From the NCBI GenBank assembly GCA_963840455.1, contig CAWIYV010000011.1, positions 544,001-608,000 of the forward strand: a DNA stretch of 64,000 nt, given 5' to 3'. The position numbers were made by a program, and so were the translations under genes. Origin of the DNA: Nitrospirota bacterium. Lineage in GTDB: Bacteria > Nitrospirota > UBA9217. Positions 8,958-52,117 of the stretch are shown here, piece after piece (positions within the stretch are counted from its first letter, which is position 1; every line of letters begins with the position of its first letter). Under the pieces are notes generated by a model. It ran no database searches. It saw only the letters and a program-made list of their open reading frames with translations, and was not told where the DNA came from.

Positions 8958-9055
8958 AGAGGGCACTGTTCCTGATTCACACCCGGAATGCAAACTGCGC
9001 CTTCGTCTTTTCGAAGACTCCCCTGCCGGCACAGCGCTCATCGCTGGTACAGGAC

Positions 9056-9089
9056 AAAAAAAAGCGTCAACCCAGTCGGGCTGACGCCG
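9056..9089 (-). terminator. Intrinsic terminator
   Basis: Minus strand GGCGTCAGCCC-gact-GGGTTGACGC followed by a T-run. Confidence 0.7.
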
Positions 9090-9320
9090 TTCCTGCTGCT
9101 CCCACTCCCGCTCGATCACTGCTCAGGCATCCGGAACCTTGCACACTTCTCGGGAGCTGGTCCGCGATGATCTGCCGGGGCAGGTACAGGGCTCCGTTCC
9201 CGCCACACCCCTTGTTCCGCACGACATCCACGGTTTAGCTGCTCATGAATATCGCCTAGACCTTCGGCCAGGACATCCTGATCCGGTCACCGACCGCCTT
9301 ACCGTTCATTGTCAGCACGG

Positions 9321-9707
9321 CTAGCGGTGGTCACGATGCACCGGCGCGACACCGCCGCCCGGCTCTATAAGCGAATTGTAGAATTCCTCCCATTCTTTCC
9401 GGTCGATCTTATTGTCCCTGTTCTTGTCCGCCTTGTTGAACAGATACGCCTTCAGCTCATCGTCCGAGAGCTTGCCGTCCCTGCCCGGTGCGAGGTCCTG
9501 TGGTTGAGCATAGGGAAGCGCCCGGACGTGCTCCAGCTTGTAGAACTCGCATGCCGAGAACTCGTCAAAGGTGATCTCGCGGTTGTTGTTCTTATCTAGA
9601 CGGCAGAACTCCTGCTCGGACGCGTTCTTCTTCTCCTCGGGAGGCGTGATCGCTCCCTGCAGGGCGAACGAAAGGGCGAGCATAAGGATGAGCATGTGGT
9701 AACGCAT
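9321..9707 (-). CDS. Secreted EF-hand domain protein
   Basis: Signal peptide; EF-hand loops DKNNNREITFDE, GRDGKLSDDE, DKNRDNKIDRKE. Confidence 0.8.
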   Translation of the reverse strand: MRYHMLILMLALSFALQGAITPPEEKKNASEQEFCRLDKNNNREITFDEFSACEFYKLEHVRALPYAQPQDLAPGRDGKLSDDELKAYLFNKADKNRDNKIDRKEWEEFYNSLIEPGGGVAPVHRDHR

Positions 9708-9757
9708 GAGTGACCTCCGCTTGGTGTGCCGTCTTCGGCAGGCTGCCGCTTCCGCTG

Positions 9758-32657: not shown

Positions 32658-32882
32658 TCGATTCTCCTGTCGCCCAATGGTTGCTGCTGGAACAAAAAAG
32701 ACCTTTACCACGGTTGTTCCTTAACGTGGTAAAGGTCTCGCATATCAGGCTCACCTGACCAGTGATGCCGGTCCCGCTATCGCGGAACGTGATGACGATC
32801 ATCACTGCAGAACGCTACTCCCCTTTACAGACCAAGTGTAGCAGAGCGCGCGGGACGGTGTCAAGGCCGTCCGCGCTGCCGG

Positions 32883-37601: not shown

Positions 37602-37642
37602 GGACATTGCTCCTTCGCTCCCGCACAAGGCGGGGCGCTCGC

Positions 37643-38095
37643 TCAGATCTTTTTTCCGATCCAGCCGAAGGCAATCAGCGAGGCGGACACCGCTGCCACG
37701 GCAATTCCGAAGTAGAGCATCCCCAGCGGGTCCTTCCATTCTACCAGGTGCTCCAGAAAGGTGACCGCCATCACCAGGATCATGACGCTCGAGAGCTTCA
37801 CCTTCAGGTCATCGAGGTTATGGACCACCAGCCATTCGGGAAGTTTGATTTCCTCAATGAACAGCTCATACAGGCCGAGCGCGAAGATGAGCAGCGCCGT
37901 GGCGATCAGGAACGAATCCATCAGCGCGATGAGCTCCACTGATGCCACCGGTGATGCGGCCGTGCTCAGCACAAGGTGTTTGATGACGAGCACGGTCTTG
38001 ACGGCACCCCAGACGGATGCCGCAAGCGCGGCGAGCAGCGAGAACACCACGCTGATCAGCACCAGGTATACGCTCTTTTCGAGCAGTTTTTTCAT
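37643..38095 (-). CDS. YqhA/UPF0114 family membrane protein
   Basis: DSFLIA..IFALGLYELFI..PEWL..LDDLKVKL. Confidence 0.85.
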   Translation of the reverse strand: MKKLLEKSVYLVLISVVFSLLAALAASVWGAVKTVLVIKHLVLSTAASPVASVELIALMDSFLIATALLIFALGLYELFIEEIKLPEWLVVHNLDDLKVKLSSVMILVMAVTFLEHLVEWKDPLGMLYFGIAVAAVSASLIAFGWIGKKI

Positions 38096-38308
38096 CAGGG
38101 AAGAGGCCTCCGGCAATGAATATTTGAATCCGGGAAAAAGTAACGATGAAAATACCATTATTCTGAGAACTTGTAAAGAGGCTGTTTCACCTTCGCCGGA
38201 GCCTCCCGCTGCAGATTCGTGATTCTTCCCCGGCCGCGCCGTGGTATAATGACGCTGTTCCGGAGCAGCCCTGGTTGCACCTTTCCTTAACAACAGGAGG
38301 ACCGGTTG

Positions 38309-38881
38309 ATGAAGCGTTTTTCCGCAGCCCTTGGCATACTCTGCGTCCTGTCTCTGCTGTCCGTCGTCGCGGCAGCGGCCGATGTGTCAAAGGACGAGAG
38401 GAACCTCGAGCGGGAGGCGAAGCGCCTGAACGACACGGCAGCGAAGCCCGACGGCGAGAAAGCCGTGGTCAAGCGGCTTGCCGTGGAGTTCAAGACGACC
38501 GAATCCCAGGTGCAAGCGCTCCGGGACCGGCAGCTCGGCTACGGCGAGGTCGCGATCGTGCTGTCGCTCGCTCAGACCCTGCCGGGGAGCGCCACGGACG
38601 CTAACGTGAAGAGGGTGCTCGCCCTGAGGCAGGGCCCGCCGATCATAGGGTGGGGGCAGGTCGCCCAGCAGCTCGGGACGAAGCTTGGCAAGACCGTGAG
38701 CCAGGTCAGGAAGGCGGCGAACAACGCGAACCGGGACATCAAGAACGACCATGCCCGCGCGGGCAAGGCCCCGAAGCAGGTGCCGGTCGAACAAAACCAG
38801 CAGGAACAAAAGAACCCGGAACCACCGCGCTCGTACCAGGGCGACGGCCGTCTCCTGCGGCAGGGCGGCAGTGCGCAGTGA
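38309..38881 (+). CDS. Hypothetical exported protein
   Basis: AGGAGG RBS; signal peptide ending AAAA; helical core with LGYGEVAI and GWGQVAQQLG. Confidence 0.75.
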   Translation: MKRFSAALGILCVLSLLSVVAAAADVSKDERNLEREAKRLNDTAAKPDGEKAVVKRLAVEFKTTESQVQALRDRQLGYGEVAIVLSLAQTLPGSATDANVKRVLALRQGPPIIGWGQVAQQLGTKLGKTVSQVRKAANNANRDIKNDHARAGKAPKQVPVEQNQQEQKNPEPPRSYQGDGRLLRQGGSAQ

Positions 38882-38916
38882 TCGTTCACGCTAGCTATTG
38901 ATCGTTGCTGTCCGGC

Positions 38917-39768
38917 TCACCGTCGGTCAGCAACGCCTCGGAAATGTCGGTTCACCACAGTCTCGATGTTCCTGCCGATGTTCTCCTTTGCGTTCACTAT
39001 GAAGATGCGTTCCTGAACGTGAAAGAGCTCACGTTCCAGCCGCAGGACCGGCGGTGGCTCGCTGCTCCTCTTTGCCAGCTCCTGCTCGAACATCGGCACC
39101 AGTTTATCCTTCATCCTAAGCTCCGTGTCCATCAGAAAAATCGATAACTCCGGTGCCAGGTCTTCCACGCGGTCGAGGAACGCGGCGACCTCGCTTTCCG
39201 TGACCTGCTTGGGCGGCGAGGACTTCGCTTCCACGTACAGGAGCGAACCGTCCATCTTTGCCAGCACGTCGTAATCTCCCCCCACCTTCGGACGTTTGAA
39301 CTTGACGCCCCAGAGAACTTCGGCGCCGAACTCCCGATGGAGCAGCTCTGCGATGTACCATTCCAGCGTCGGCCCGAAGCTCGTGATTCCTGACCGAGAA
39401 AGGACATACCCCGCCGCTCCCTCGGTGATCAGCCTGATTTCCCGAAGATAACCAAGGTAGGACCGGATGACCCGAGCGGTCGAATACCGCGTCACCTGTT
39501 CGAGCGTGAACCGGTCCTGGTGCTTGATGACGTCGCGGAGCAGCAACCGAAAGGAATATTTATGCAGCATGTCGAAGAAGCTGCCGAGGAACGGTTCGTC
39601 GGGCACGAGGAGATCGTCGGTCGGTTCCTTTTTAAAAACCCGGAAACCGCGGCGTTTGAGGATCGTCTCGAGAGAGGGAGTGAGGCGGTTCAGCGCCTGC
39701 CGCAGCCGCTTCACTTCTTCGCGAAGGAGCATTAACTCCACTGCATCATGGTCATCAAGTGTTGCCAT
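38917..39768 (-). CDS. Hypothetical protein with C-terminal PD-(D/E)XK nuclease-like motif
   Basis: GPTLEWY..GGDYDVLA..LLYVEAKS fits an E..D..ExK pattern. Confidence 0.6.
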   Translation of the reverse strand: MATLDDHDAVELMLLREEVKRLRQALNRLTPSLETILKRRGFRVFKKEPTDDLLVPDEPFLGSFFDMLHKYSFRLLLRDVIKHQDRFTLEQVTRYSTARVIRSYLGYLREIRLITEGAAGYVLSRSGITSFGPTLEWYIAELLHREFGAEVLWGVKFKRPKVGGDYDVLAKMDGSLLYVEAKSSPPKQVTESEVAAFLDRVEDLAPELSIFLMDTELRMKDKLVPMFEQELAKRSSEPPPVLRLERELFHVQERIFIVNAKENIGRNIETVVNRHFRGVADRR

Positions 39769-39810
39769 GGCACGGTTTGAGGCGCGTGATAAAGGGAGTT
39801 CCTGCTGTCG

Positions 39811-41277
39811 TTATGAATCCCAATCCAGCAGCCGTTTCTGGCCTTCTAGCTTCCTGATGTCCGTCACGTCCTGGCTCACTTCGAGCGTCCCCCGGTACGC
39901 CCCCTTCTCGTCGCGCACCGCGAAATACTGGATCAACAGGAACCTGCCCTTCATCTGGATCCAGAAATCAGCTTTGTCGCGCCTGCCTGCCCGGAACTCA
40001 TCCAGGATCTTCTGCACCATGCCAAAGCTCTTGGGCGGGTGGCAGTTCTGGACCTTCCGGCCGATGACGCCGGGGCTGCGCGGGAAGATGCGGTCCTTCG
40101 TCGCGGAGTAGTACCGAACCTCGTCCTTCTCGTCAACGAAGGAAATATCCACCGGCATATGCTTCAGAAGCATATTGACCTGCTCCGCGGTCATTACCCC
40201 GGTGTCGAGCATGACCTCACTTTCCTGGCCGGCGGGCCGTTCCTTCGCCTCTTCGGCGCTCATAGTCCAGTCCGCCTCCGGCCTGATCCATGCATAGCCG
40301 ATCTCCTCCTCGCCCTGCCGCACCTTGCCCCACTCCTTGTCGGTCAGGAGGTCCTTCGCCATGGGGAAGAGGATGTGCTCTTCCTTATAGATCATGTCGC
40401 GCATGCTCTTCGACAGGTATTGCAGCGTGCTCATCACATCGGGAACGAGCGCGTCCCTGACGCCGGCCTTAGCGCTCTTCACGGCCACGCGGATGTCGTC
40501 GTGGAGCGCCCACATGACCTGCGAAGGCCCGGTGATGCCATGGACCTCGAGCACCGGGAACAGCTGGTTCTCCTTCCGGAGGTAATGAAGGTCGATGGTG
40601 CTGAGCTGTTCGACGAGCTTTGCCAGCACCTCCCGCTCCTTTTCAAAGGCAGCCTTTTCCGGAGCTTCGCCGAGCCTCGCCAGGACGTGGTCCAGCCCGT
40701 GCAAGATGCCCTCAGCGGCCCGGTTCTCGAGCATATAGGTATGGAGCGGATGGCCCGGCGGGACCACCGGTGCGTCCTGCGCTGAAAGCGACTCCTTGAA
40801 CACCTCCACGTGCACATCGCAGAGCCGTTTCACCTCGCTCTCGGGCATTCCCTCTGCCATGAGCCGCTGCTCCATCTTCGCGATCTCGGACGGATCGATG
40901 TCCTTGATGAGCTCGTGGAACCGGTGCTTGAGAACGGACATCTCAACGTCTTTGTGCAGGTCCCGGATGATGTCCTTCAGCAGCTCCTGGCGGGCATCGG
41001 CGTCCATGAGCGGGGCGCTCCCGGCCGTCGCGGACCCGATCGCCACGTCCGTGCCGGTCCGCTTCCTGATCTCCGCCGCGATATCCGCCAGCAGCGCGGT
41101 CAGTTCGATGTTGCCGATGGATGCTGCCTGCGCAACCGTCGCCACCTTTCCCACGGTCTTCCGCATGACCGCGTTTTCCAGCAGCTTGAACTTGGGCGAG
41201 CGGGCGATCAGGAATTCCATCAGGAAGGGGTATTCCTTCAGCAGGTCGTCGATCTTCGTGTTGGCATTCAGCTCCAT
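39811..41277 (-). CDS. DUF438 family protein (DUF1858-DUF438-hemerythrin-PAS)
   Basis: RLCDVH, GHPLHT..EN, HYLRKENQLFP, VMWALHDDIR, MIYKEEHILFP, IGRKVQNCHPPKS. Confidence 0.9.
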   Translation of the reverse strand: MELNANTKIDDLLKEYPFLMEFLIARSPKFKLLENAVMRKTVGKVATVAQAASIGNIELTALLADIAAEIRKRTGTDVAIGSATAGSAPLMDADARQELLKDIIRDLHKDVEMSVLKHRFHELIKDIDPSEIAKMEQRLMAEGMPESEVKRLCDVHVEVFKESLSAQDAPVVPPGHPLHTYMLENRAAEGILHGLDHVLARLGEAPEKAAFEKEREVLAKLVEQLSTIDLHYLRKENQLFPVLEVHGITGPSQVMWALHDDIRVAVKSAKAGVRDALVPDVMSTLQYLSKSMRDMIYKEEHILFPMAKDLLTDKEWGKVRQGEEEIGYAWIRPEADWTMSAEEAKERPAGQESEVMLDTGVMTAEQVNMLLKHMPVDISFVDEKDEVRYYSATKDRIFPRSPGVIGRKVQNCHPPKSFGMVQKILDEFRAGRRDKADFWIQMKGRFLLIQYFAVRDEKGAYRGTLEVSQDVTDIRKLEGQKRLLDWDS

Positions 41278-41406
41278 GGTGCCTCCTCATTGTTTTCTTC
41301 AATGGTAGCATAAAAAAACCGTCGGGTCATCCAGGGCTTCATGATATGCCAGGGCAGTTCGCAGAGCTATGATGCAGATCAGGAGGAACGAGAAAACGGC
41401 AGGCGG

Positions 41407-41997
41407 CTACTTCCCGCTCCTGCCTTCGATGAGGAGATAGGTGTCCTGCTTGACAAAGCGTGTTCCGGTCGAACCGCGCGCCGTTGACCTTCTCCACGAG
41501 GGGCGCGAAGAAGTCCTGCCGTTTGCGGTGCGACCGGTCCTTCGAATAGACCATCTCGAGGAGGCAGAACCGGCCGCCGGGCTTCATCACCCGGCTGATC
41601 TGGCTGAGCGCCTGGTCCTGGAACTCGAAGGGCAGCGCGCAGCAGAGGAAGCAGGCCACGACCCAATCGAACTGGTCCGGAGGGATCGAGGATATGGTGC
41701 AGACATCGTCCTGAACGAACAGGACCGGACAGGACGCTCCGTCCGCTCACGCCGGGCATGCTGGAGCATGGCAGGGCTGAAGTTGAGGGCGGTCAGGTGT
41801 GTCACTCCCGGAGGGTAGTAGCGCAAATTCCGTCCGGTGCCCGCCCCCACCTCGAGTACGTTTACCGATACGCCGGACAGGAGCTGGGGCCGCCATTTGC
41901 GGTACTGCATCTCCCAAGGAAGATCAAGGATGTCGTAGAACCAGGCGGTAATATTGTACCGCTTCAGGTTCTCGAGGTTCGTTGGATGGAGGTCCAT
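41407..41997 (-). pseudogene. Class I SAM-dependent methyltransferase, disrupted
   Basis: VLEVGAGTGRNL motif I; continues in another frame (FLCCALP..RVMKPGG) after about 41750; further break near 41450 before QDTYLLIEG. Confidence 0.8.
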
Positions 41998-42044
41998 TTC
42001 AGTAACGACTCAGTAACGCCGTTCTTGCGGAATAGGAAGCCCTA

Positions 42045-42548
42045 TCATGTGCAGCTGCCGGGGTCCTTGTGGCAGGCATCTTTCTTGTTCCGTTCTCCGA
42101 GCCGTGTCTCCCGCCGGGTCTTTCCCTCCCGATGGCGACGCCGCTCTTCGTCGCTCTCGAGGATCAGCGGCGGGACCTCGACGGGGTGTCCCTTCTTATC
42201 GATGGCCACGTAGGTCAAATAGGCAGATGCTGCATGGCTCACCGCGCCGGTCATGAGGTTCTCGGCCTCAACGCGCACGCCGATCTCCATGGATGTCTTG
42301 CCCACATAGTTGAGGCAGGCCTTGAAAAAGAGCAGGTCGCCGACGAAGATAGGAAGGTGGAAATCCATCCGGTCGATGGAAGCGGTGACCACGTTGCAGC
42401 GCGAGTGCCGCGCAGCGACCACGCCGGCGGCCTCGTCGATGATCTTGACCACGACGCCGCCGTGCACGTTGCCCGCAGGATTGGCGTCCTGAGGGATCAT
42501 CATCTGGGCGGTGATAACGCTGCTGTCCTTGACTCGTTTGCCTTCCAT
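42045..42548 (-). CDS. Acyl-CoA thioesterase (hotdog fold, YciA-like)
   Basis: PQDANPAGNVHGG, VTASID, GKTSMEIGV. Confidence 0.93.
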   Translation of the reverse strand: MEGKRVKDSSVITAQMMIPQDANPAGNVHGGVVVKIIDEAAGVVAARHSRCNVVTASIDRMDFHLPIFVGDLLFFKACLNYVGKTSMEIGVRVEAENLMTGAVSHAASAYLTYVAIDKKGHPVEVPPLILESDEERRRHREGKTRRETRLGERNKKDACHKDPGSCT

Positions 42549-42864
42549 AAAGAATACCTCCGGTACGTTATCTGACGTATAGTACCACAAACACGGCCAA
42601 AAAGAACGATTTGAGAAAACAGTAAGGAAGAACAGCCGATAGGGCGGAAGGATCGCCGGCGTGGCATCGAGGATATCTCTGCAGCAGCCGGTCTCCTTTT
42701 GCGACGACAGAAGAGGGCGTTCCGTCGGAATTGCCGCTGGCGCGGGAGAAGAGTTAAAACAGTAGCAACATCAAAGGACATGCATAGGTAATCTGCATGA
42801 TGATATTTTACGTCGTATAGGAAAAGAGGAAATTCGTAACTGTGTGATGACATCATGATTGATG

Positions 42865-43100
42865 TGCACTAGTCACGAATTGTGTTTACAGCTGAAGACT
42901 CCTAAGAGTTGAGGTGTCATGGCCTTCCGGTTAAGATAGTTTTGCGAAAACACATCTTAACCTTAGGAGGAAGGACCATGACTCAACAGCAGTATATCAT
43001 AGGACGAAAGCTCAACATTCTGGAATTAGGCACCACCTCGGCAATATTCGTGAAGCCTGTTAACGATTAGGTGTCAGCCGACAACACTATTACGACATCA
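42865..43100 (+). mobile_element. IS481-family insertion sequence remnant (left end plus decayed transposase 5' part)
   Basis: End-like TGCACTAGTCACGAATTGTGTTTACA; AGGAGG RBS; ATG 42978 MTQQQYIIGRKLNILELG, frameshift, GNIREAC*RLGVSRQHYYDI, an IS481-type HTH N-terminus. Confidence 0.7.
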
Positions 43101-43149
43101 TGCAGATTCCCCTGTCCATTCAACAGCGTTAGTTTGCACCTTGCGGTGG

Positions 43150-44046
43150 CTAATAGCTGAATCTGACACCTACGCTGAAGATATTATCGTTACTGCTCGT
43201 GCCCGGGACGTTCGAATCACTCATCTGATGATCATATTGAGCATCTATAAACCATCGTTTGGCAAACTCCTGCGCAACACCCGCGGAAATGGTATTCGAC
43301 GTAACCTGGAAACCTGCAGGCTCATCATAATCGCGCACGAGGTGGTTGTACCCGAGAAGAAGCGTTGTTTTTGGCAGAACTAGGTAACCTCCCCAGATCC
43401 CGATGAAGTTTCCCGTGTAGGTGAAGAACGCCGAATCTGCATTGTTCTTTTCATAGTAATAGCTTTCCTTCAGCCAGAGTAACGGCGTGAACTGCTCCTT
43501 GAAGGTCACTATCGGGCCGAACGCTGAGCTGTCTCGCAGTGAATCCGTGTATCGTTTGATGGCGCCATTGATCGCGAGTCTGACCGTGACGATATCGCCC
43601 AGATTCTTATCAATACCGGCGGTCAAGCCTCCGATGGTGTTATCGAATTCGTTAAAGCTGTTGTAAGAAGTGTGCTGTGCGCTGCCAATCAGGAACAGGT
43701 ATGTCCCGGAGGCTATGTCGGTCGAACCGCCGATGTCCGCGAAATAATTGATCGAGAAATCGCTCTTCGATTGCACTCCCGTATCTTGCGGGATACTGCC
43801 TCCCATGCCGCCCATACCCCCCGGGCCCATTACAGCGCCCATCATCCCGGGACCGGTTGCAGGCATTCCCGCCGTGCCGCCGCGCTTGTCTGATAAGAGA
43901 CCTACAACATTGTCTTCATAGGTACCTCTAATTGCCACGTCATAGAATATTCCGGCCTGCGCGACTGAAGCAATAGTGAGATACAGGAACAGAACAATGC
44001 AGCCGGTGATCGCCGCATTTACCGCCCGATGAGATCGCATGTGCAT
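43150..44046 (-). CDS. Putative outer-membrane beta-barrel protein with Met/Gly-rich N-terminal insertion
   Basis: Signal peptide (AQA); YEDNV then GMPATGPGMMGAVMGPGGMGGMGG; alternating beta strands; C-terminal FSVGVRFSY. Confidence 0.75.
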   Translation of the reverse strand: MHMRSHRAVNAAITGCIVLFLYLTIASVAQAGIFYDVAIRGTYEDNVVGLLSDKRGGTAGMPATGPGMMGAVMGPGGMGGMGGSIPQDTGVQSKSDFSINYFADIGGSTDIASGTYLFLIGSAQHTSYNSFNEFDNTIGGLTAGIDKNLGDIVTVRLAINGAIKRYTDSLRDSSAFGPIVTFKEQFTPLLWLKESYYYEKNNADSAFFTYTGNFIGIWGGYLVLPKTTLLLGYNHLVRDYDEPAGFQVTSNTISAGVAQEFAKRWFIDAQYDHQMSDSNVPGTSSNDNIFSVGVRFSY

Positions 44047-44110
44047 TTCCTCTCCTACGCTCACGCCAGTATACTTTTGTTGTGTATATCAGAAATAATA
44101 AAAATCGACT

Positions 44111-44126
44111 TGTTATAAGTATAACA
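44111..44126. promoter_or_regulatory. Palindromic operator-like site upstream of the beta-barrel gene
   Basis: TGTTATA-AG-TATAACA perfect 7-2-7 palindrome. Confidence 0.45.
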
Positions 44127-44138
44127 GGGCAAAATATT

Positions 44139-44168
44139 AAAAAAGGCAGCCGCATGGTGCGACTGCCA
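44139..44168 (-). terminator. Intrinsic terminator of the ECF operon
   Basis: GGCAGTCGCA-cca-TGCGGCTGCC followed by T6. Confidence 0.75.
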
Positions 44169-44217
44169 TATGAGGTTGGTTTGCTTATGGTCATGTAAAC
44201 AGCGGATCTTCGTTACG

Positions 44218-44910
44218 TTACCGTTTTGGCCCGCCCATGCCAGGCCCCATGCCGGAACCATGATCCATTCCCATACCGCCGTGGTCCATTCCCGGCCCGG
44301 TGCCCATGTGATCACGGTCGTGCGACATATCCCGGTCATGCTGCCTGGTCCTGTCTCTGTCCATGGCCCGCGTCGCGTTGTCCGCGGCCTTGTCGGGAGG
44401 AGTTCCGGACTTTAAGTCCCCGGCATAAGCAGTCGTGGCGGCCGTTATACTGGCGGCTCCGGCCCCTTGATTGATCCCATTGGACATTACCTGCGAGGTC
44501 CTGTCGGCCGGGGCGCCTGCTGCCACAGTCTTGCCGAAAGTGTTCGTCATCTGCACCGTTTCCCGCGCAGTGTACCTATGCTGTATCGCCTCCCCTGCCA
44601 CCGAGGCTGCATCTTTCCTCGCAGCGGGTCCCGCTGCCTCTATGGACCTCGCGACCTCGGCCAGGTCCTTGCCTTTCATGCCCTGGTTGATGGATGCTTC
44701 GACCACGCGGTAGGCATGATCAACAGGCACACCCTTGTCCACCAGGCTCTGCAGCGTCTTCACTGCCTGGGAGTGGTCCTGGGCATTCAACTTCTTTTCC
44801 GTAGCCTGCCTGTCAATGTTGGTCTTTGCTTCATCCACGGTAAGAGCGAATGCCGTCATACCGAACAGCAGAATGCTCCCTGTCACAATTATCGTCAGTA
44901 GCTTTTTCAT
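44218..44910 (-). CDS. Secreted helical-repeat protein with Met/His/Gly-rich tail
   Basis: Signal peptide (AFA); repeats KGVPVDHA / AGAPADRT / SGTPPDKA; tail HDRDMSHDRDHMGTGPGMDHGGMGMDHGSGMGPGMGG. Confidence 0.8.
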   Translation of the reverse strand: MKKLLTIIVTGSILLFGMTAFALTVDEAKTNIDRQATEKKLNAQDHSQAVKTLQSLVDKGVPVDHAYRVVEASINQGMKGKDLAEVARSIEAAGPAARKDAASVAGEAIQHRYTARETVQMTNTFGKTVAAGAPADRTSQVMSNGINQGAGAASITAATTAYAGDLKSGTPPDKAADNATRAMDRDRTRQHDRDMSHDRDHMGTGPGMDHGGMGMDHGSGMGPGMGGPKR

Positions 44911-44957
44911 GTTGGCACCTCCTCGATTATCTAGCTTGATTTAAGGACTGCTCCTGC

Positions 44958-45875
44958 TTACTTCCGCCCGCCCATGCCTGACATGCCTCCCATGCCGCCG
45001 GAGGCAGGCTCGTGCATCGTCCCTCCTCCGGACCTGTCCTGCATCTGCATGTCACGCATCCCTTCGCCCCGCTCCATGCGGGAGTTCATGCCGGAAACAA
45101 CATCGTTCATGGGGCGATCCTTCCTGAGCTCGTTGACCATGTAGCGCTCCATGGCCTCCAGGTCTCCTTCGGAATAGCCCTTGTCCACTGCCGTATGGAC
45201 CATTTTCGCGGCCTGTCCGGCAGTCATGCCGCTCCCAGCAAAGGTGGTCATCGTATCCACCGCCCGGCTGAACAACCCGAGCGATCCTTTGCGATCCCTT
45301 ACTTTCTCTCCGGTCTTCATGATAGCATCCTGCGGGATCGACTTTTCCATCGCTCTCGCCGCGGTCTCGATCGCATCATCGTACGCTTTTGCATGGGGTG
45401 CCTTTACGCCCCCGCTCTCCACCCTGTTCACGAGCGGTTTGGCAGCGGCAAGGTACCCGGAAAGCCGTTGCGTAACGCCTGATATCTTCTCCGCAGGTAC
45501 GCCCTTGGCAAGCCCCTGCTCGGTCCGGTCAAGGATGAGCCTGACCGGCAAGCCCTGTCCTTTTGCCCTCGTTGCAGTTTCGAGGAAACCCTCAACATGG
45601 CGGCTCTCTACGCCCTGATCCAAGCCGCGGGTGATAATGATGGAGACATCCTCGGCCGGAATGCCCGCAGCCACCGCCTGACCGGCCTTGGTCAGTATGC
45701 CGGCCTTGGCTTCCTTCGAGAGCGAGGACCTTTCTACAGCGATCCTTGCCTGTTCAAGATGCTTCGATCCCGCCTCTTCCGCCCTGGCGGGCGGCGCCGC
45801 CGTCAGGAGCGCTGCTGCGGCCAGCAGCAGGACAATCAGAATGTTAAAAATGCCCTCTGTCATGTTCCTTTTCAT
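44958..45875 (-). CDS. Secreted helical-repeat protein with Met/Gly-rich tail
   Basis: Signal peptide (ARA); repeats AGIPAEDV / QGLPVRLI / KGVPAEKI; tail GMRDMQM..GGMGGMSGMGGRK; ATGA overlap with the anti-sigma gene. Confidence 0.8.
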   Translation of the reverse strand: MKRNMTEGIFNILIVLLLAAAALLTAAPPARAEEAGSKHLEQARIAVERSSLSKEAKAGILTKAGQAVAAGIPAEDVSIIITRGLDQGVESRHVEGFLETATRAKGQGLPVRLILDRTEQGLAKGVPAEKISGVTQRLSGYLAAAKPLVNRVESGGVKAPHAKAYDDAIETAARAMEKSIPQDAIMKTGEKVRDRKGSLGLFSRAVDTMTTFAGSGMTAGQAAKMVHTAVDKGYSEGDLEAMERYMVNELRKDRPMNDVVSGMNSRMERGEGMRDMQMQDRSGGGTMHEPASGGMGGMSGMGGRK

Positions 45876-46531
45876 GTCTTGACCCTCATCACAGCATTTT
45901 TGTTTCCGAAGCCGTCATCGCGGTAGGTCTCCGCGTTCGGGTCGGTCACCCATGCCTTTCCATCCACAATGAACATGTAACTGTACTCCCCGGGCTTCAG
46001 AGGTATGCTGACCGTCCAAACCCCGTTTTCCTGCTTCGTGAGCATATGTGCATCAGCCTTCCACTTATTGAACGTGCCCGCAACCGCCACTCGATGAGCT
46101 TCCGGCGCGTGCAGGTTCATGGTCACCGTCACGACTTGTTCCTGCCGGGGAACGGCTGCGGTCTCAACAGGCGCGTTCCGGGTGCGAACGACCTGGGTGA
46201 AGACCAGGGCGAAGAGCACCGCAGCCGCAAATGCCGTGGCCATGTTCCACCTGAGCACCCGTCCCTTGAGCAGGAAATCCCGTATCCGGTTCGTGATCGT
46301 CGCTTTTCGTGCGGGCAGCCGCCGCATGACCTCTGCGGTAAAGAAGGGAGGGGCCTGCATCCTCTCGCTCGTCTCGATCGTACGGAGCGCTCCCGTAATA
46401 CCGTCGAGCTCTTCCTTAAACGCAGGATCCGACTGAACTCGGTCCAAAAGCACCTTCTTTTCGTCAGGGCCGAGGTCCCCGTCCAGCATCCGGTGAATAA
46501 GTTCCCTATCGATTTCTTGTCTATCCGTCAT
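45872..46531 (-). CDS. Putative anti-sigma factor with C-terminal AMPK1_CBM/CBM48-like domain
   Basis: N-terminal anti-sigma-like helix (LIHRMLDGDL), single TM, then APEAHRVAVAGTFNKW..GVW..LKPGEYSYMFIVDG..WVTDP..DDGFG..N; ATGA overlap with the sigma gene. Confidence 0.85.
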   Translation of the reverse strand: MTDRQEIDRELIHRMLDGDLGPDEKKVLLDRVQSDPAFKEELDGITGALRTIETSERMQAPPFFTAEVMRRLPARKATITNRIRDFLLKGRVLRWNMATAFAAAVLFALVFTQVVRTRNAPVETAAVPRQEQVVTVTMNLHAPEAHRVAVAGTFNKWKADAHMLTKQENGVWTVSIPLKPGEYSYMFIVDGKAWVTDPNAETYRDDGFGNKNAVMRVKT

Positions 46532-47088
46532 AAGCCAACCCCCATGCCTTCCAGGAGCTTTCTGAGCATCTCTCTTCCCCTGTGTGCACGTACTTTGAGA
46601 GCGCTGACCGAGACACCCAATGCGTCGGAGATCTCCTGATAATCAAGCCCCTCAATATGCTTCAGGACGATCACCTCGCGGTAGTCAGGGGGCAGCCCGT
46701 TCAGTGCGTGCTGGACCGCGTCCCCGGTCTGGCGGCAGGAAGCAATCTTCTCCGGCGAGGGGTCCGGCCCTGCGGTATAGTCGCAGATCTCATCTACCGG
46801 CACGGTCTCCTTGCCTGCTCTGAAATGATCGCGGCACTTGTTCACCACGATCCGGTACAGCCAGGAGGAAAACCGGGAATTGAACTTAAAATCCCCGAGT
46901 GCATTATAGGCTGAAATAAAGCCTTCCTGCGCCATATCCTTGGCCGCATCAGAATCACCGAGCATCCGAAAGGCGATATTGTATGCCATGTCCTTGTACC
47001 TGTCCACCAGCACTGCATATTGGTCGGAGTCGCCGGCGAGGCACTTTCTGATAACGGCATATTCTTCTTCAACGCTATCTGCGCTCAT
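46528..47088 (-). CDS. ECF RNA polymerase sigma factor
   Basis: 186 aa; region 2 AKDMAQEGF..FSSWLYRIVVN; region 4 LPPDYREVIVL..GLDYQEIS..VRAHRGR. Confidence 0.95.
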   Translation of the reverse strand: MSADSVEEEYAVIRKCLAGDSDQYAVLVDRYKDMAYNIAFRMLGDSDAAKDMAQEGFISAYNALGDFKFNSRFSSWLYRIVVNKCRDHFRAGKETVPVDEICDYTAGPDPSPEKIASCRQTGDAVQHALNGLPPDYREVIVLKHIEGLDYQEISDALGVSVSALKVRAHRGREMLRKLLEGMGVGL

Positions 47089-47100
47089 GTTGTACCTATT

Positions 47101-47128
47101 AGACGATGATTGACTCGAAAAGGTTACA
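47101..47128 (-). promoter_or_regulatory. Putative ECF promoter (autoregulatory)
   Basis: Minus strand TGTAACC-ttttcgagtcaatcat-CGTCTAA, ending about 12 nt before the sigma ATG. Confidence 0.75.
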
Positions 47129-47493
47129 GCCCGGGATTCTCTTCCGGTACAATAAGAACGGAATTCTTCCCGCCGAACCCGTCGTCAATTTCCGGGACAG
47201 AAGGGTCTGGCTGCCACTTTTTCCCGTCTACGATGAACAGATATTCGTACCGCCCTTCAGGGAGGGGGATGATAATGTTCCAGACACCCTTATTATCGGC
47301 TCCGGACAACCTGTTCTTATGAGTGTCCCAGGCATTGAAAGCTGCCGGCAATCGCGACACTGCTTGCCTCTGGCGCATAAAAGGTGAAAGAGACGCCCTC
47401 TTTCGTCAGCTCCGGGCCCAGGTGCTTCGGTCCGCAGGCTGATATGAGCGAGCAAAAGAACAGGATCGATATCATGGACAGGCGCGGTTTCAT
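47124..47493 (-). CDS. Lipoprotein with AMPK1_CBM/CBM48-like domain (one-base frameshift near 47339, likely error)
   Basis: Lipobox LISAC; GVSFTFYAPEASSVAIAGSF|NAWD..GVW..LPEGRYEYLFIVDG..WQPDP..DDGFGGKNS. Confidence 0.8.
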
Positions 47494-47595
47494 GGTTATT
47501 GTAGATTTCACTATATGTTTATGATACCGCTCGTTTCACAAGGTTTGCAAGGTAAACATTGATTTACATGGCCTGGACAGGGAAAACAGGACGGC

Positions 47596-47630
47596 AAAAA
47601 AGCGGCAGCCGGACCTTTATCCGGCTGCCC
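47596..47630 (-). terminator. Intrinsic terminator of the Met-rich lipoprotein gene
   Basis: GGCAGCCGGA-taaagg-TCCGGCTGCC followed by a T-run. Confidence 0.75.
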
Positions 47631-47660
47631 TAAGTTTACAGCAGTTTAAGTAAGGATGCT

Positions 47661-49403
47661 TTAGATCGCCCCGTTGGTGGTGCTCAACTGGTTGATGAGC
47701 GTTTGCATGTTGGTCGTGGTAAGGGTTGATCTGTTCATGGCAGAACCCAGGAACGAAGTCATTGCACTCGCCAATCCGCTGGTCCCTGCCGTGGACTGCA
47801 TCATGGTACCGCCGCCACCCATCATGCCACCACCCATACCACCCATGGTTATCTGGGTGCTTCCCATCTGACCGTTCATGATGCCGTCCGAAGCATCGTT
47901 CATCATGGACAAGATCAGGGCTGCGGGGTCCGTCATGCTGATGGTCTGTGCATACTGAGACATGGCGGCAATGGCAACGCCGTAGTTCTTCATGTCCACA
48001 GTAGCAGTACCGCCGGATCCTAGTACTGCCGCATTCATCGGGACGGTTTCAAGTATGTTGGACACCATGAAGTAGTTGCCAACCGCCGTGTTTGCTGCCG
48101 TAATATTGGCATCAGTCATACCGCCTGCCATTGCCTGGGCACGGGCCTGCGCCATAGACGTAAGAGGAGTCATCTGAATGCCCGTGATCGTGGCTCCGCT
48201 TGAGATGGTTGGAATGACTGCGGTCATCACATCGCCGGCCGACATGGTCATGGTTGTGCCGGTTGCCAGGTTGTTATACGACCCCCCGCTCATCTTGAGC
48301 ATGACCGGCCCGGAATAGGCGCCGAGGGACAGGCTGAAGCTGCCCATGCTGTTCGTGGTCCCGCTAGCCAATTGAGCGCCCAGAGAGCCGCCACTCACTG
48401 CGTATGCCATGACCGTGGCGTTGCCCATCGTTCCGTTGAAGACCGATCCGCCGACCATCCCGCTCATCGGCGTTCCTCCGCCACTCGGAATGCTGCCGGT
48501 CGCCGAAGTAGTCAACTTGTTCATGAGCGCCGTCATGTCTCCAGCAGTTACGCCTGACTTATTCAGGGTGGAGGTCATGAACGTCGCCATTTCCGTGGCG
48601 AGCCCGCTCGTCCCCGCAGTTGTCGTCATCATGGAGCTGCCGGCCATCATTCCGCCCATCATGACCGGGGTACCTCCCATCAAGCCGTTCATAACGCCGT
48701 CCGACGCGTCATTCATCATGGCCGTGACCATGTTGGAGGAAGAGGTCATTCCCATGTCCTTCGCGGATTGCGACATTGCCGCGATGGCCATGCCGTAGTT
48801 TTTCATGTCCTGGGTCGCGGTGCCGCTTGATCCGGACACAAGCGGGCTCATGGGTGGCGTATGCAGGATATCGTTCACGATGAAGTAATTTCCTATTGCG
48901 GTGTTTGCTGCCGTGATATTTACATCCATCATGCCGCCCGCCATATTATTTGCCATTGCCTGGGCCATGGAGGTCAGAGGGGTTACTTGAATTCCGGTAA
49001 CCGTCGAGCCGGTAGATAGCGTTGTCATAACAGCGGTCATCACATCACCGGGAGCCATGGATACGGTAACGCCGGTCGCCTCATCCACGTATGTTCCACC
49101 GCCCATCTGAAGCATAATGGAGCCTGCATAGTCGCCAACTAATATATTGAAATTTCCCTGACTGTCCGTTGCTCCACTGGCGAGTTGCATGCCCATGGTC
49201 CCATTGGTGATGGCATATGCCGTTACTGTCCCTCCGCTAATCGGTCCCTTGACCGCCGTACCACTGATCATTCCGTTAGCGCCTGTTGTTCCTCCAGGAG
49301 TCGTCGCACTGCTCCCTCCTCCGCCACAACCATAAAGAAGCGACATTGACCCGATTAAGAGAGTGAGAGTTAACATTACCTTGAGTTTCTTGTGCTTTTG
49401 CAT
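47661..49403 (-). CDS. Methionine-rich lipoprotein built from two tandem repeats of about 265 aa
   Basis: Lipobox LYGC plus GGGGSS linker; duplicated TPLTSMAQA, NITAANTAxGNYF, DMKNYG, MMNDASDG, TAGTSGLA blocks; about 69 Met in 580 aa by manual count. Confidence 0.85.
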   Translation of the reverse strand: MQKHKKLKVMLTLTLLIGSMSLLYGCGGGGSSATTPGGTTGANGMISGTAVKGPISGGTVTAYAITNGTMGMQLASGATDSQGNFNILVGDYAGSIMLQMGGGTYVDEATGVTVSMAPGDVMTAVMTTLSTGSTVTGIQVTPLTSMAQAMANNMAGGMMDVNITAANTAIGNYFIVNDILHTPPMSPLVSGSSGTATQDMKNYGMAIAAMSQSAKDMGMTSSSNMVTAMMNDASDGVMNGLMGGTPVMMGGMMAGSSMMTTTAGTSGLATEMATFMTSTLNKSGVTAGDMTALMNKLTTSATGSIPSGGGTPMSGMVGGSVFNGTMGNATVMAYAVSGGSLGAQLASGTTNSMGSFSLSLGAYSGPVMLKMSGGSYNNLATGTTMTMSAGDVMTAVIPTISSGATITGIQMTPLTSMAQARAQAMAGGMTDANITAANTAVGNYFMVSNILETVPMNAAVLGSGGTATVDMKNYGVAIAAMSQYAQTISMTDPAALILSMMNDASDGIMNGQMGSTQITMGGMGGGMMGGGGTMMQSTAGTSGLASAMTSFLGSAMNRSTLTTTNMQTLINQLSTTNGAI

Positions 49404-49450
49404 TTGTTACATCCCCCTAAATTAAACTAATTTTACTGCCATTGTGATTT

Positions 49451-49477
49451 AGACGAGGTAACGACTAAAAGGTTACA
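49451..49477 (-). promoter_or_regulatory. Putative ECF promoter for the Met-rich lipoprotein
   Basis: TGTAACC-ttttagtcgttacct-CGTCTAA, 47 nt upstream of the ATG. Confidence 0.75.
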
Positions 49478-49980
49478 AATAACTTCACGACGAGTTATTC
49501 CTTAAATATCGTCTCATCTATCTTTGAATACTGCAAAACAGGATAATTGTCGATTTCAAGCAGCGGATAGTTGAAAAAAGAGCCCACTCGACGCATGCCA
49601 GATTATTGGGATTTCCTTCGGGAAGAACAACGGCTTGACGTGATGGTATTAGGTCTACGTAAGGCTAGTTCTCTGAAGAAACTACACTCCAGTGACCAAA
49701 AATCAAATGTTGAAGGATGAGGCTCTTTCTTATCTCTTTGCCGCTTGCCTCCTCCCAGGCTAAACATCTGCGCCCTGCCGACTGTTTCGATGTTATGCAA
49801 CTCTGTATGTTCCGACTCTGCGCAAACGAAGTCAATAATAAAAGCGAAATGCATGGATAAATAGATTGCGACTGTTGCACATTTAAACGATGTTGTACTC
49901 GCAGTCATATATAATCGCCGCTTCCTGCCGCTATTATCGCAACTTCAAATCAGCGCAAGACAAATCCATACATGTTTACC

Positions 49981-50007
49981 TGTAACCTTTTATGATTTGT
50001 TTCGTCT
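49981..50007 (+). promoter_or_regulatory. Putative ECF promoter for the divergent exported protein
   Basis: TGTAACC-ttttatgatttgttt-CGTCTCA. Confidence 0.72.
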
Positions 50008-50104
50008 CATATGGCATCAACCCGGAAGAAGAATATTTTATCGGAGCTCCAAAGAAAGAATAATATTTTTTATTCTAACGTGTTTACTGCGAGGGAGTCG
50101 CATT

Positions 50105-50605
50105 ATGAAAATGAAGAGGTTATTGATTGCATATTTTCTGAGCGGTGTGTTTGCTGTTTTTGGACTGTTCTCTCCGGTTGCTGGCAATGCGGGGATAAAT
50201 GTAGACATTAATGTTCCCCTGCCCGACATCGCCATAGCCGGACCGCCAGCCATGGTGGTTGTCCCCGGCGCCTATGTGTACTTTGCCCCTGATGTTGAAG
50301 CTGACCTTTTTTTCTATCACGGATACTGGTACCGGCCCCATCAGGGAGGATGGTATTATTCGCTCGGATACAACGGGCCCTGGGGCCGCATAACGATCGG
50401 GAATGTGCCGCCGCCGCTGGTCAGTCTGCGGCCCGGCTATCGGAATGTACCTCCAGCCTATGAGCGCATGCCCTACCCTGTGGTACAGAGGTACTGGAGA
50501 CAATGGGAAGAGGAACGGTACTGGGATTCCTATCAGAGAAGTGATGAGCATCCAGCGCCCCATCGGGGTCATGGTATGGGTATGGGCAGGGGAATGGGAA
50601 TGTAG
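50105..50605 (+). CDS. Exported Pro/Tyr/Trp-rich hypothetical protein with His/Met/Gly tail
   Basis: Signal peptide; GINVDINVP..PPAMVVVPG..VYFAP..FFYHGYWY..YNGPW; tail HRGHGMGMGRGMGM. Confidence 0.8.
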   Translation: MKMKRLLIAYFLSGVFAVFGLFSPVAGNAGINVDINVPLPDIAIAGPPAMVVVPGAYVYFAPDVEADLFFYHGYWYRPHQGGWYYSLGYNGPWGRITIGNVPPPLVSLRPGYRNVPPAYERMPYPVVQRYWRQWEEERYWDSYQRSDEHPAPHRGHGMGMGRGMGM

Positions 50606-50909
50606 AGGCGTGGGGACTGATGGTCTAATTAGTATCGTATCGACGATGCGGATTTCGTCAAGTATACTTGCTGGTCTGCACTGCCAATTTTGCGGCGGAG
50701 CAAAGAATTCATGATGTAATATGCCCTTGAGCGAGCGGAAAAACGTGGTGTGACAAAATAAGAGCTAATTCCTGATTGGAATTTTCAGAGAAAGCCACGG
50801 GATCGGCCAGTCCCGGGATGATCCTAATCGCCGATTCCGGGCCTTCTTAAAAGATGCAACTTTCCTATTGCATCTATCCCGTGCGCGGGGGTAAAATTTA
50901 TAAGAGGTT

Positions 50910-51731
50910 TTGCTCATGGCCTTGACGGCATTCCTTCCACCTTCGAACCCTCATCAGCCGCAAGCCTCTATACGGAACATTCGCATGCACATGTCCGACC
51001 TCTTATCGACAGATCTTCCCGCGACCGACGCCGCGCCGCAGCCGATGTTCTGCGCGGCCATTGCCGGGTTCATCCGTTGCGCCTTCCGGCGCCCTGTCGC
51101 GGGACGGGTCCTCGCCGTCGCCGCGCTCATGGCCGCTGCGCATGCCCCTGGAACAGCCCGGGCAACGGAGCTGGCGTCCCTAAACTTTACGGTCGTTCAT
51201 CCGGCACAGCGTTGGTCCTCGGCGCCGCTCGTCCGGGAGACCTACGACACGTACAATGTCCACGGCACCAGCATTCCCGAGCTGTGCGCCTGCCTAAGCC
51301 GTAACGGCGTCCGGATGAATAACGGCGACATTTACGATGCCCTGACCAGCTGGGATGTGAAGTGGGAGTACGACTACGATCGCTCCCCTGGCGGATGCTC
51401 GGTGGATGACTTCCGCGCAGTCGTGGACGTGACCATCCGCTACCCCCGCTGGGTTTCGAACGATGACGCCCCTGCTCCGCTGGCAAATGCCTGGGACGCC
51501 TTTCTGCACAGCCTCATCCAGCATGAACAGGTCCACCGCGATATCGCTGTGGCAGCCGCCGACGGGCTGATCCGCGCCGCTACCGCGATCCCGCCTGCGG
51601 CCACCTGCGCTGACTTGGACCGGGCCGTGGAAGCCCTTGGCCGATCATTCATGAAGCAGCTCACGCTGGACCAGCATGCCTATGATGCTGAAACCAGCCA
51701 TGGCGCCATGCAGGGCGCCGTCCTTCCCTAG
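50910..51731 (+). CDS. DUF922-like putative secreted Zn-dependent protease
   Basis: YNVHG, ALTSW, YPRW, HEQVH (HExxH), YDAETSHG..QG; true start probably downstream. Confidence 0.75.
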   Translation: MLMALTAFLPPSNPHQPQASIRNIRMHMSDLLSTDLPATDAAPQPMFCAAIAGFIRCAFRRPVAGRVLAVAALMAAAHAPGTARATELASLNFTVVHPAQRWSSAPLVRETYDTYNVHGTSIPELCACLSRNGVRMNNGDIYDALTSWDVKWEYDYDRSPGGCSVDDFRAVVDVTIRYPRWVSNDDAPAPLANAWDAFLHSLIQHEQVHRDIAVAAADGLIRAATAIPPAATCADLDRAVEALGRSFMKQLTLDQHAYDAETSHGAMQGAVLP

Positions 51732-51876
51732 CACCCTTCAGCGCCTTACATCCACACCGATAGTTGTCACCATGAGCAAACAGAAAGAGCAGGCTGCTGT
51801 TTCGCCTGCTCTTCAAGCTGTGGTAACTTGCATGTTTTTCCGTCCTTCCCGGACGGTCATGGTGCACTGTGGTCCG

Positions 51877-52083
51877 CTACGGCAGACCAGAGCCAGGGCC
51901 GAAGAAGGACTCCCAGATGCGGGTGTGCTCATCGACCTCCTTTACCGCTCCTTTGCCTTCCGCTGCCAAGCCAAACGCTGCGACCTCCTTCTCATGGACG
52001 AGGTTCTCCTCATACATCGCAACGCCTACATCGACCGGCTTCTCCTCAGAGATGATCGTCGCCTTAATCGGCGTCGGTATCAT
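51877..52083 (-). CDS. Small hypothetical protein
   Basis: 68-aa acidic ORF with GGAG upstream; no recognisable motif. Confidence 0.35.
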   Translation of the reverse strand: MIPTPIKATIISEEKPVDVGVAMYEENLVHEKEVAAFGLAAEGKGAVKEVDEHTRIWESFFGPGSGLP

Positions 52084-52117
52084 CACTCTGCTTCTCCGGT
52101 CCCCCACGAACTATGCG

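Follow-up and report, generated by a model that had tools for sequence, protein, structure and literature searches.

What is the output of an anti-sigma factor that carries a domain resembling carbohydrate-binding modules, and what is the role of the methionine-rich envelope proteins encoded around it? This question was raised by eight clustered genes at positions 43150-50605 of a 64,000-nucleotide stretch of DNA from a Nitrospirota bacterium (assembly GCA_963840455.1, contig CAWIYV010000011.1, positions 544,001 to 608,000). The whole stretch is called the window here. A sequence-only reading had presented the cluster as a candidate system in which an extracytoplasmic function (ECF) sigma factor and a CBM48-like anti-sigma factor control methionine-rich envelope proteins. 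All eight reading frames were found in place, with signal peptides and lipoboxes judged by eye from the translations. The view of an autoregulated ECF module that drives methionine-rich envelope proteins was supported, as one promoter motif precedes both the sigma gene and methionine-rich genes. Judged from sequence and gene context, we give about even chances to the output being a periplasmic regulon whose thioether sites buffer Cu(I) or Ag(I); no match to a multicopper oxidase was found in the host.

The sigma and anti-sigma factors and their promoter motif

The sigma factor (186 amino acids, 46528-47088, minus strand) matched the Pfam families Sigma70_r2 (E = 3.8e-18) and Sigma70_r4_2 (E = 7.9e-18), and scored 106.2 bits against TIGR02937, the sigma70-ECF model, whose cut-off is 42.9. 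With its region 2 and region 4 domains, an adjoining anti-sigma gene and a promoter motif of its own, it belongs to the ECF factors (sigma-70 group 4), as had been claimed. Its closest solved relative was SigW (5wuq_A, E = 5.9e-31), although the NCBIfam SigW model gave 143.5 bits, under its cut-off of 209. CnrH (4cxf_A) matched at 4.5e-16.

The anti-sigma gene (219 amino acids, 45872-46531, minus strand) overlaps the stop of the sigma gene by 4 nucleotides, and its own stop overlaps the start of the gene of a 305-aa helical protein by another 4. Residues 10-77 of the product matched RsiW (5wuq_C, E = 4.1e-5), and a hydrophobic stretch read from the sequence follows at about residues 96-113. 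This helical RsiW-like N-terminus followed by one predicted transmembrane helix is the build of class I anti-sigma factors (RsiW/RskA type). The match to NF052375 antisigma (8.8e-8) was under the cut-off, and no DUF1109 match was found in Pfam. The predicted periplasmic part, residues 132-218, matched AMPK1_CBM (2.3e-14; 53.8 bits, cut-off 26.8) and CBM_48 (3.9e-12; 46.8 bits, cut-off 22.4), and was similar to the CBM48 domain of pullulanase (5ot1, 6.6e-7) and to the carbohydrate-binding modules of AMPK beta. The overlap and the Pfam matches bear out the proposal of a translationally coupled anti-sigma factor with a periplasmic AMPK/CBM48-like domain.

The closest solved relatives of both partners are thus SigW and RsiW of Bacillus subtilis (PDB 5wuq), where the anti-sigma factor is also single-pass and its gene overlaps the sigma gene. 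RsiW has the zinc motif His-x3-Cys-x2-Cys. In the present protein we found H13-x3-D17 (L16, D17) and, in an alignment of 16 members, no conserved cysteine, by which a zinc-binding anti-sigma factor was ruled out. The extracytoplasmic CBM48-like domain and the unrelated regulon also set this pair apart from SigW-RsiW. An anti-sigma factor with an extracytoplasmic sensor resembling carbohydrate-binding modules is known from RsgI-SigI of Clostridium thermocellum, but SigI is not an ECF factor, the modules belong to other families and the genes it switches on encode enzymes that degrade polysaccharides. Metal resistance under the control of ECF factors is known from CnrH-CnrY-CnrX and CorE; neither the periplasmic helical metal-binding sensor CnrX nor the Cys-rich sigma extension of CorE is present here. 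Our literature searches found no description of an anti-sigma factor with a CBM48/AMPK-beta-like domain. In the available parts of the ECF classification supplement, AMPK1, PF16561, CBM_48 and PF02922 were not named. The same parts list, under ECF25, Nitrospirae and Gemmatimonadetes subgroups with single-pass anti-sigma factors, which we take as a lead only.

Directly upstream of the sigma gene is a small lipoprotein gene (47124-47511, minus strand) whose C-terminal part belongs to the same Pfam families as the anti-sigma factor (AMPK1_CBM, 38.5 bits). It had been described as a lipoprotein with the same domain. The domain was recovered, but the gene is not intact in the window: one extra base near 47337-47342 splits it into two frames, 47317-47511 and 47124-47378. 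All of the 35 orthologues compared have a single open reading frame (ORF) of 108-137 codons with a lipobox and an FNxW motif, and the gene is intact (128 codons) in L095, a metagenome contig 97% identical to the window. A short-read contig from run X1 (depth 2.2, with 2 mismatches in 234 nucleotides) has one base fewer at 47342. This leaves two explanations for the frame break, an error of assembly or a mutation of this strain.

The pattern GTAACCTTT-N10-16-CGTCT occurs three times in the window and in none of 100 shuffles. The three copies, all exact and with spacers of 12 or 13 nucleotides, make up the ECF-type promoters of the sigma operon (47101-47127, minus strand), of a gene for a 580-aa lipoprotein (49451-49476, minus strand) and of a divergent gene for an exported protein (49982-50007, plus strand). 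The whole 4.03-Mb genome contains just one more copy, on contig C5, and a reversed-pattern control gave none. Relaxed patterns were tried across the genome and rejected, because the extra sites were scattered and unconvincing. Terminator-like hairpins followed by T runs lie after the 230-aa gene that ends the sigma operon (44145-44167, minus strand, 10-pair stem) and 3′ of the 580-aa lipoprotein gene (47604-47629, minus strand, 11-pair stem). From the motif sites and these hairpins we recognized three transcription units: the 580-aa lipoprotein gene alone, the sigma, anti-sigma, 305-aa and 230-aa genes together, and the exported protein gene alone. The earlier proposal of three units under one promoter motif was therefore correct. 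A gene for a probable barrel protein lies behind the terminator at 44145-44167 and has no motif of its own in the window.

Two details of these promoters deserve mention. The TAA stop codon of the CBM48 lipoprotein gene is part of GTAACC, the -35 element of the sigma promoter, and the start codon of the sigma gene lies about 10 nucleotides past the -10 element, with the same spacing in the related loci L005 and L006. Because of this short distance, the sigma mRNA may be nearly leaderless. At the divergent gene, a TTG at 49997 falls within the promoter, so the start of the exported protein must be downstream. Contigs from the RNA run X19 covered parts of the sigma, anti-sigma, 580-aa lipoprotein, exported protein and both helical protein genes at 90-99% likeness. 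One of them spans a promoter and DNA carry-over is possible, so they were not counted as transcription.

The anti-sigma factor had at least 283 homologues. Using one genome per species, 279 anti-sigma loci were confirmed and 80 were kept, 48 from Nitrospirota (L005-L052) and 32 from Gemmatimonadota and other phyla (L053-L084). In the Nitrospirota loci, tblastn found the anti-sigma factor in all 48, the sigma factor in 47, the 305-aa protein in 45, the barrel in 31, the 230-aa protein in nine, the 580-aa lipoprotein in nine (five at 56-76% identity and four at 35-40%) and the exported protein in three. The CBM48 lipoprotein was a separate ORF upstream in at least 35 of them. Many of these loci are on short contigs that end inside the unit. 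Through L005-L052 the genes stand in one order (lipoprotein, sigma, anti-sigma, helical protein, barrel), and these five form the conserved core. Comparatively, the 32 loci of other phyla have the sigma and anti-sigma genes alone in common. Co-occurrence of the genes elsewhere thus holds mainly for the five-gene core, and in few of these loci for the 580-aa lipoprotein or the exported protein. Among 401 sampled Nitrospirota genomes, 82 had an anti-sigma match at E = 1e-20 or better, including 38/63 in the window's own family, 32/76 in a second family and 3/5 in the genus.

The motif is also conserved. It lies directly upstream of the sigma gene in 26 of the 48 Nitrospirota relatives; 19 of these were assigned by script, and in seven others (L006, L025, L027, L043, L046, L048 and L049) it was at the same place, where the script had chosen another ORF or none. 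Outside the sigma operon, the motif was found before 580-aa-like lipoprotein genes in six genome loci, two of them distant at 36% identity, and before the exported protein gene in three loci. The divergent promoter pair is present in L005 and L008, as well as in L092, L098, L108, L111 and L116. Eight further secreted proteins with 6.4-12.9% methionine are preceded by the motif in relatives. They are mostly non-homologous (three are of one family) and have GMNPTPG-, GSMGS- or MTGTG-like repeats, or a run of MGGG or MM at the N-terminus. One more target in relatives is a His-rich protein.

Methionine-rich products and the neighbourhood of one family

We surveyed ORFs of at least 60 codons across the genome for segments with at least six Met and at least six Gly within 30 residues. 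Such Met/Gly-rich ORFs are rare (9/20,265), and four of the nine are in the cluster. Outside the cluster, the set consists of GroEL, a CpxP/Spy-like protein, two membrane proteins, one of them of the outer membrane, and a doubtful ORF. A secreted CpxP/Spy-like protein with an LTPDQ motif read by eye is encoded on contig C11 of G000 (827697-828386, outside the window). It has a Met/His/Cys-rich N-terminal segment (11 Met in 30 residues), and the strict promoter motif is absent there. Around the module in the 48 Nitrospirota loci, 34 of 2,522 ORFs were Met/Gly-rich, spread over 23 loci. All five non-regulatory products of the cluster had been said to carry Met/Gly(/His)-rich segments. These segments are real and rare and four products reach the threshold, but the short GHGMGMGRGMGM tail of the exported protein falls below it.

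The 305-aa protein (44958-45875, minus strand) is a secreted helical-repeat protein that ends in a disordered tail of the GGMGGM type. An AlphaFold model (predicted local distance difference test, pLDDT, 88.8) showed 14 helices arranged as two-helix repeats, and the tail from about residue 270 was modelled with low confidence. Among its orthologues, 35/46 have at least five Met in the last 60 residues. The search for known folds gave little. No Foldseek match reached E = 0.001, the ESM Atlas returned unnamed clusters only, and the best VIA-align score (Z = 10.0), to designed repeat proteins, is under the level that is meaningful for helical repeats. A profile search recovered 1,440 representative clusters of this helical family, 65 of them at 1e-30 or better. 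We read 12 distant members, which had the same build and tails that were Gly/Met, Gly/Arg/Ser, acidic or Ser/Thr-rich. The neighbouring 230-aa protein (44218-44910, minus strand) is also helical and secreted, and its tail is rich in Met, His, Asp and Gly. The two had been called related, and this relatedness proved weak: they have a single repeat unit in common, at E = 8e-4.

The probable outer-membrane beta-barrel (304 amino acids, 43150-44064, minus strand) was retained as such, although the matches behind it, BBP2_2 (7.9e-4) and TIGR03016 (7.8e-3), are weak and under cut-off. A Pfam scan at E up to 1 gave BBP2_2 alone and no match to the CopB family. The last residue is aromatic, and a Met/Gly-rich loop with six Met per 30-residue window follows a conserved EDNVVGLLSD motif. 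The divergent exported protein was confirmed at 50105-50605 on the plus strand, with about 166 residues from MKMKRLL. It is rich in Tyr, Trp and Pro and has a His/Met/Gly tail; none of its 201 homologues is named or has a Pfam family. Neither Pfam nor NCBIfam has a family for this protein, the two helical proteins or the 580-aa lipoprotein, and no literature description was found for the Met-array lipoprotein, helical-repeat or exported protein families.

The 580-aa lipoprotein (47661-49403, minus strand) contains 11.9% methionine. Its two halves are 55% identical (E = 9e-82), which bears out the claim of a duplication, and each unit consists of a predicted beta-sandwich and a helical Met-rich part. 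We scored 5,790 candidates and found 1,111 homologues of the unit, all unnamed, which include sequences of Anaeromyxobacteraceae, Desulfurivibrionaceae, Acidobacteriota and Thermoleophilia. Alignment of 33 sequences showed 17 invariant or near-invariant Met positions and no conserved His, and the lone conserved Cys was that of the lipobox. The model of the unit was poor (pLDDT 58.8) and had a beta-sandwich at the N-terminus, together with several helices and a Met/Gly loop that was disordered. The sandwich gave generic transthyretin-like matches alone, at 0.005 or weaker. A survey of the copper-resistance literature for Met-rich lipoproteins, judged by titles, found nothing on this family.

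Metagenomes searched with the lipoprotein alignment gave 313 confirmed loci, and 80 were carried forward. Nineteen of these 80, with identities of at least 59%, have the ECF motif 65-105 nucleotides upstream of the lipoprotein gene; in 10 of the 80 the sigma module is beside it, and in five there is a divergent exported protein gene with its own motif. At identities of about 62% or lower, most loci lack both motif and module. For gene context we chose the 19 metagenome loci whose flanks were longest (two carry the motif) and searched 117 neighbouring proteins. Ten of the 19 had copper-type genes within 5 kb, in nine distinct arrangements (L147 and L149 share one). At L110, genes for YtkA, an outer-membrane factor (OEP), a CusB-like adaptor and an RND pump lie directly downstream of the lipoprotein gene. 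Multicopper oxidase genes directly adjoin it at L123, L171 and L168. An HMA P-type ATPase gene is directly downstream at L149 and an HMBD ATPase gene directly upstream at L165. A truncated P-type ATPase is encoded near it at L152, and YHS-domain proteins at L147 and L157. At L101, a CopA-type ATPase gene of the HMBD kind and one cytochrome c gene come first, then the lipoprotein and exported protein genes, each with the motif, and a 230-aa-like gene. All four of the ATPases examined (4/4) have CPC and MxxSS, which we take to be the Cu(I)/Ag(I) signature of P1B pumps. As a separate observation, the lipoprotein homologue at L165 adjoins an MtrC/MtrF-like multihaem cytochrome (8977-11721).

A contrast set of 127 neighbours around the Nitrospirota ECF loci, mostly larger ORFs and picked from the first 300 of 361, was heterogeneous. 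It contained no multicopper oxidase, P1B ATPase or methionine sulfoxide reductase (Msr), and one pump locus (L044, with YtkA). YtkA-like genes were near the module in five loci. The host genome (100% completeness) encodes two HMA ATPases and one YtkA, and has no Cu-oxidase_3 match.

The Pco, Cop, Sil and Cus systems (PcoE/SilE, PcoB/CopB and CusF) are the obvious comparison. They also have periplasmic and outer-membrane proteins with Met/His-rich motifs, which resemble the MDHGGMGMDHGSGM-type repeats in the tail of the 230-aa protein and the disordered Met-rich segment of the barrel, and the neighbours of the lipoprotein family are Cus-type pumps, multicopper oxidases and CopA-type ATPases. 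However, no sequence family in Pfam or NCBIfam is common to the two sets, and the Pco, Cop, Sil and Cus genes are under two-component control and are not known to depend on an ECF sigma factor.

The island and its surroundings

The whole cluster sits in a variable island of about 8 kb (42866-50835). A related genome, L026 (about 90% nucleotide identity), is collinear with the window at 37000-38879, 38961-42865 and 50836-52085. It has about 0.8 kb where the window has the 8.0 kb of 42866-50835, and we therefore call the cluster an island that varies between relatives. At both borders the G+C fraction falls to 0.46-0.47. The closest relatives of the cluster, L005 and L006, have transposase and integrase genes on their flanks. 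The low-GC left border, 42866-43150, has no other copy in the genome. It contains a short ORF at 42978-43070 (MTQQQYIIGRKLNILELG...) which continues in other frames and presumably once encoded the N-terminal part of a transposase, now decayed.

A second, native copy of the module is present in L026 (4.2 kb), has Arg/Asp-rich tails and is cleanly gone from the window (38879-38961). Contig C5 of the same genome (7.7 kb, locus L001) is a second haplotype of window positions 37.6-42.9 kb and contains a remnant of this native module: a CBM48 lipoprotein gene in which the conserved Trp codon is replaced by an in-frame TAG, the promoter, a gene for a 119-aa secreted protein rich in Lys, Asp, Gln and Arg, and a barrel paralogue. 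The sigma, anti-sigma and helical genes were lost between two 74-nucleotide promoter repeats. With the TAG in C5 and the extra base in the window, neither CBM48 lipoprotein gene of this assembly is intact, and both breaks lie near the FNxW motif.

Some other genes of the window were also followed. A secreted helical protein of 191 amino acids (38306-38881, plus strand), for which no family was found in Pfam or NCBIfam, has homologues that adjoin the module in nine Nitrospirota loci, either just upstream of the CBM48 lipoprotein gene or downstream of the helical protein gene; it could be one more accessory component. Positions 29940-32711 (minus strand) encode a type IIA (Ca2+-like) P-type ATPase, for which the best NCBIfam model was the PMR1 type (682 bits, under the cut-off of 798); in 17 of the 48 Nitrospirota loci, a homologue is encoded within a few kb of the module. 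The region is flanked by a DUF1858-DUF438-hemerythrin-PAS protein (39811-41277, minus strand) and a DUF922 protein (50910-51731, plus strand). Both flanking genes are conserved with L026 and lie outside the island.

What the regulon may do

In the buffering reading that we prefer, the anti-sigma factor would hold the sigma factor at the inner membrane through its RsiW-like domain, and its CBM48/AMPK-beta-like beta-sandwich would face the periplasm. The small lipoprotein with the same domain, encoded directly upstream, probably takes part in sensing. Once released, perhaps by proteolysis of the anti-sigma factor, the sigma factor would read the GTAACCTTT-N12/13-CGTCT promoters and thereby drive its own operon, with the two helical-repeat proteins and their disordered Met/Gly(/His) tails, together with the Met-rich lipoprotein and the His/Met-tailed exported protein. 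The barrel with its Met/Gly loop would travel with the sigma operon. The methionine-rich proteins would bind Cu(I) or Ag(I) through thioethers and so buffer the periplasm.

Several observations weigh against this reading. None of the 1,842 ORFs around the module in the 32 loci of other phyla was Met/Gly-rich, so the sensor is not tied to methionine-rich outputs, and methionine richness is a hallmark of the regulon's composition in Nitrospirota, not a universal one. Even within the 305-aa family, 8/46 orthologues (one truncated) have at most two Met in tails rich in Arg, Asp, Glu and Lys, and the native L026-type locus is of that kind; the Met-rich segments that had been expected to be conserved are thus frequent but not universal. 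As the sequence-only reading had stated, family scans (Pfam) found no Msr, P1B ATPase, Cus pump or multicopper oxidase in the cluster itself. The copper association was shown for one regulon member, at 19 loci chosen by flank length out of 80. Small c-type cytochromes adjoin the lipoprotein gene in 6/19 of these loci, and in a Syntrophales sequence (P0224) the lipoprotein unit is fused to a cytochrome c domain, which together could point to a redox role; such cytochromes may be a redox partner of the Met-rich lipoprotein family. The sensor domains conserve aromatic and acidic residues, but their alignments show no conserved His or Cys and one near-invariant Met, and direct metal sensing is therefore unlikely. 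The proposal of a sequestration-type metal or oxidant response consequently gained support on its metal side, from the copper genes near the lipoprotein family, but not for metal sensing by the sensor domain. Considering the missing His and Cys together with the outputs in other phyla, we think that the sensor does not read the metal itself but some consequence of stress, or else a ligand that is a glycan or a protein.

Another explanation is a general envelope-stress response in the role of RpoE-RseA-RseB, in which the CBM48 domain monitors a glycan or a lipoprotein or outer-membrane protein intermediate, the helical proteins are holdases or structural, and methionine is a tail habit of the lineage. 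The SigW/RsiW-like partners agree with this, as do the adjoining lipoprotein and barrel, which presumably resemble RseB and outer-membrane protein sensing, the variable tails of the 12 distant helical proteins, the sensor in other phyla without Met-rich outputs and the GGM tail on GroEL of the same genome. However, it leaves unexplained why non-homologous Met-rich proteins were repeatedly recruited to the promoter and why the lipoprotein family has copper genes beside it, and no protease, chaperone or assembly gene for lipopolysaccharide or outer-membrane proteins was found in the unit when the cluster and its neighbours were scanned. We consider this explanation doubtful. A more literal use of the domain, in which it binds alpha-glucan or another polysaccharide and the regulon serves surface or polysaccharide handling, as in clostridial RsgI, seems very improbable. 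The claim would rest on the domain family, that is, on the matches to pullulanase and AMPK beta noted above. W194 and N212 are invariant and align with what we take to be sugar-binding positions of AMPK beta, but two of the five contact positions we assume there, Trp100 and Lys126, are replaced, the latter by a near-invariant Met186. Among the loci that gave the 127 neighbour proteins, only two have glucan genes next to the module, GH57 in L042 and alpha-glucan water dikinase in L032, and the conserved unit has no glycoside hydrolase, transporter or polysaccharide gene.

The methionines could instead be an oxidant sink of the MrpX type, which scavenges hypochlorite, peroxide or oxygen-derived oxidants and is recycled by an exported Msr encoded elsewhere. 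The genome does encode MsrA, MsrAB and MsrB with signal peptides, and a Tat-exported molybdoenzyme. Nevertheless, these Msr loci lack the strict promoter motif, scans for Msr and YedY-type genes found none in the cluster, in the 127 Nitrospirota-locus neighbours or in the 117 neighbours of lipoprotein homologues, and the 17 position-conserved Met of a folded lipoprotein suit a binding site better than a sacrificial pool. The precedent is SigF/NrsF with MrpX and YedY (MsrP) in Azospira suillum, where an autoregulating ECF pair switches on an exported, periplasmic Met-rich peptide (PMC4436054); the idea of an ECF sigma factor driving periplasmic Met-rich proteins is thus already known. The SigF regulon includes a methionine sulfoxide reductase, whereas no Msr is linked here, and MrpX is composed of Met and charged residues, in contrast to Met/Gly tails or a folded lipoprotein. 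NrsF, by the description of ECF16, is multi-pass with periplasmic cysteines, unlike the single-pass CBM48 anti-sigma factor. The Caulobacter SigF motif, GTAACC-N16-CGAA (PMC3511200), has the same -35 element and similar spacing. As a link to SigF we dropped this element, since the ECF classification gives GTAACC-type -35 elements for several unrelated ECF groups and it is not diagnostic. Taken together, an oxidant sink appears improbable.

We return to the buffering reading. Pairing of the anti-sigma factor with a lipoprotein of the same domain suggests, by a comparison we presume to be apt, a two-membrane arrangement like NlpE/RcsF or an RseB-like modulator. In a bolder form, which we regard as rather unlikely as a whole, the CBM48 anti-sigma factor and its lipoprotein paralogue would be a new trans-envelope sensor, in which the outer-membrane copy signals damage of the envelope to its inner-membrane counterpart. 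In that case the products of the regulon would be a new class of periplasmic Cu(I)/Ag(I) sponges that replaces the missing multicopper oxidase in anaerobic Nitrospirota, made up of helical-repeat proteins whose disordered tails are rich in thioethers, a barrel lined with Met and a Met-array lipoprotein that spans phyla.

Copper and silver handling is poorly known in strict anaerobes and in Nitrospirota, and such hosts often lack the oxidase by which aerobes detoxify Cu(I). If the buffering reading is true, three unnamed families, the Met-array lipoprotein, the helical-repeat proteins and the Tyr/Trp-rich exported protein, would gain a function, and the CBM48-like anti-sigma factor with its paralogous lipoprotein would be a new input module for ECF signalling. 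The sharply defined promoter makes the regulon predictable in metagenomes.

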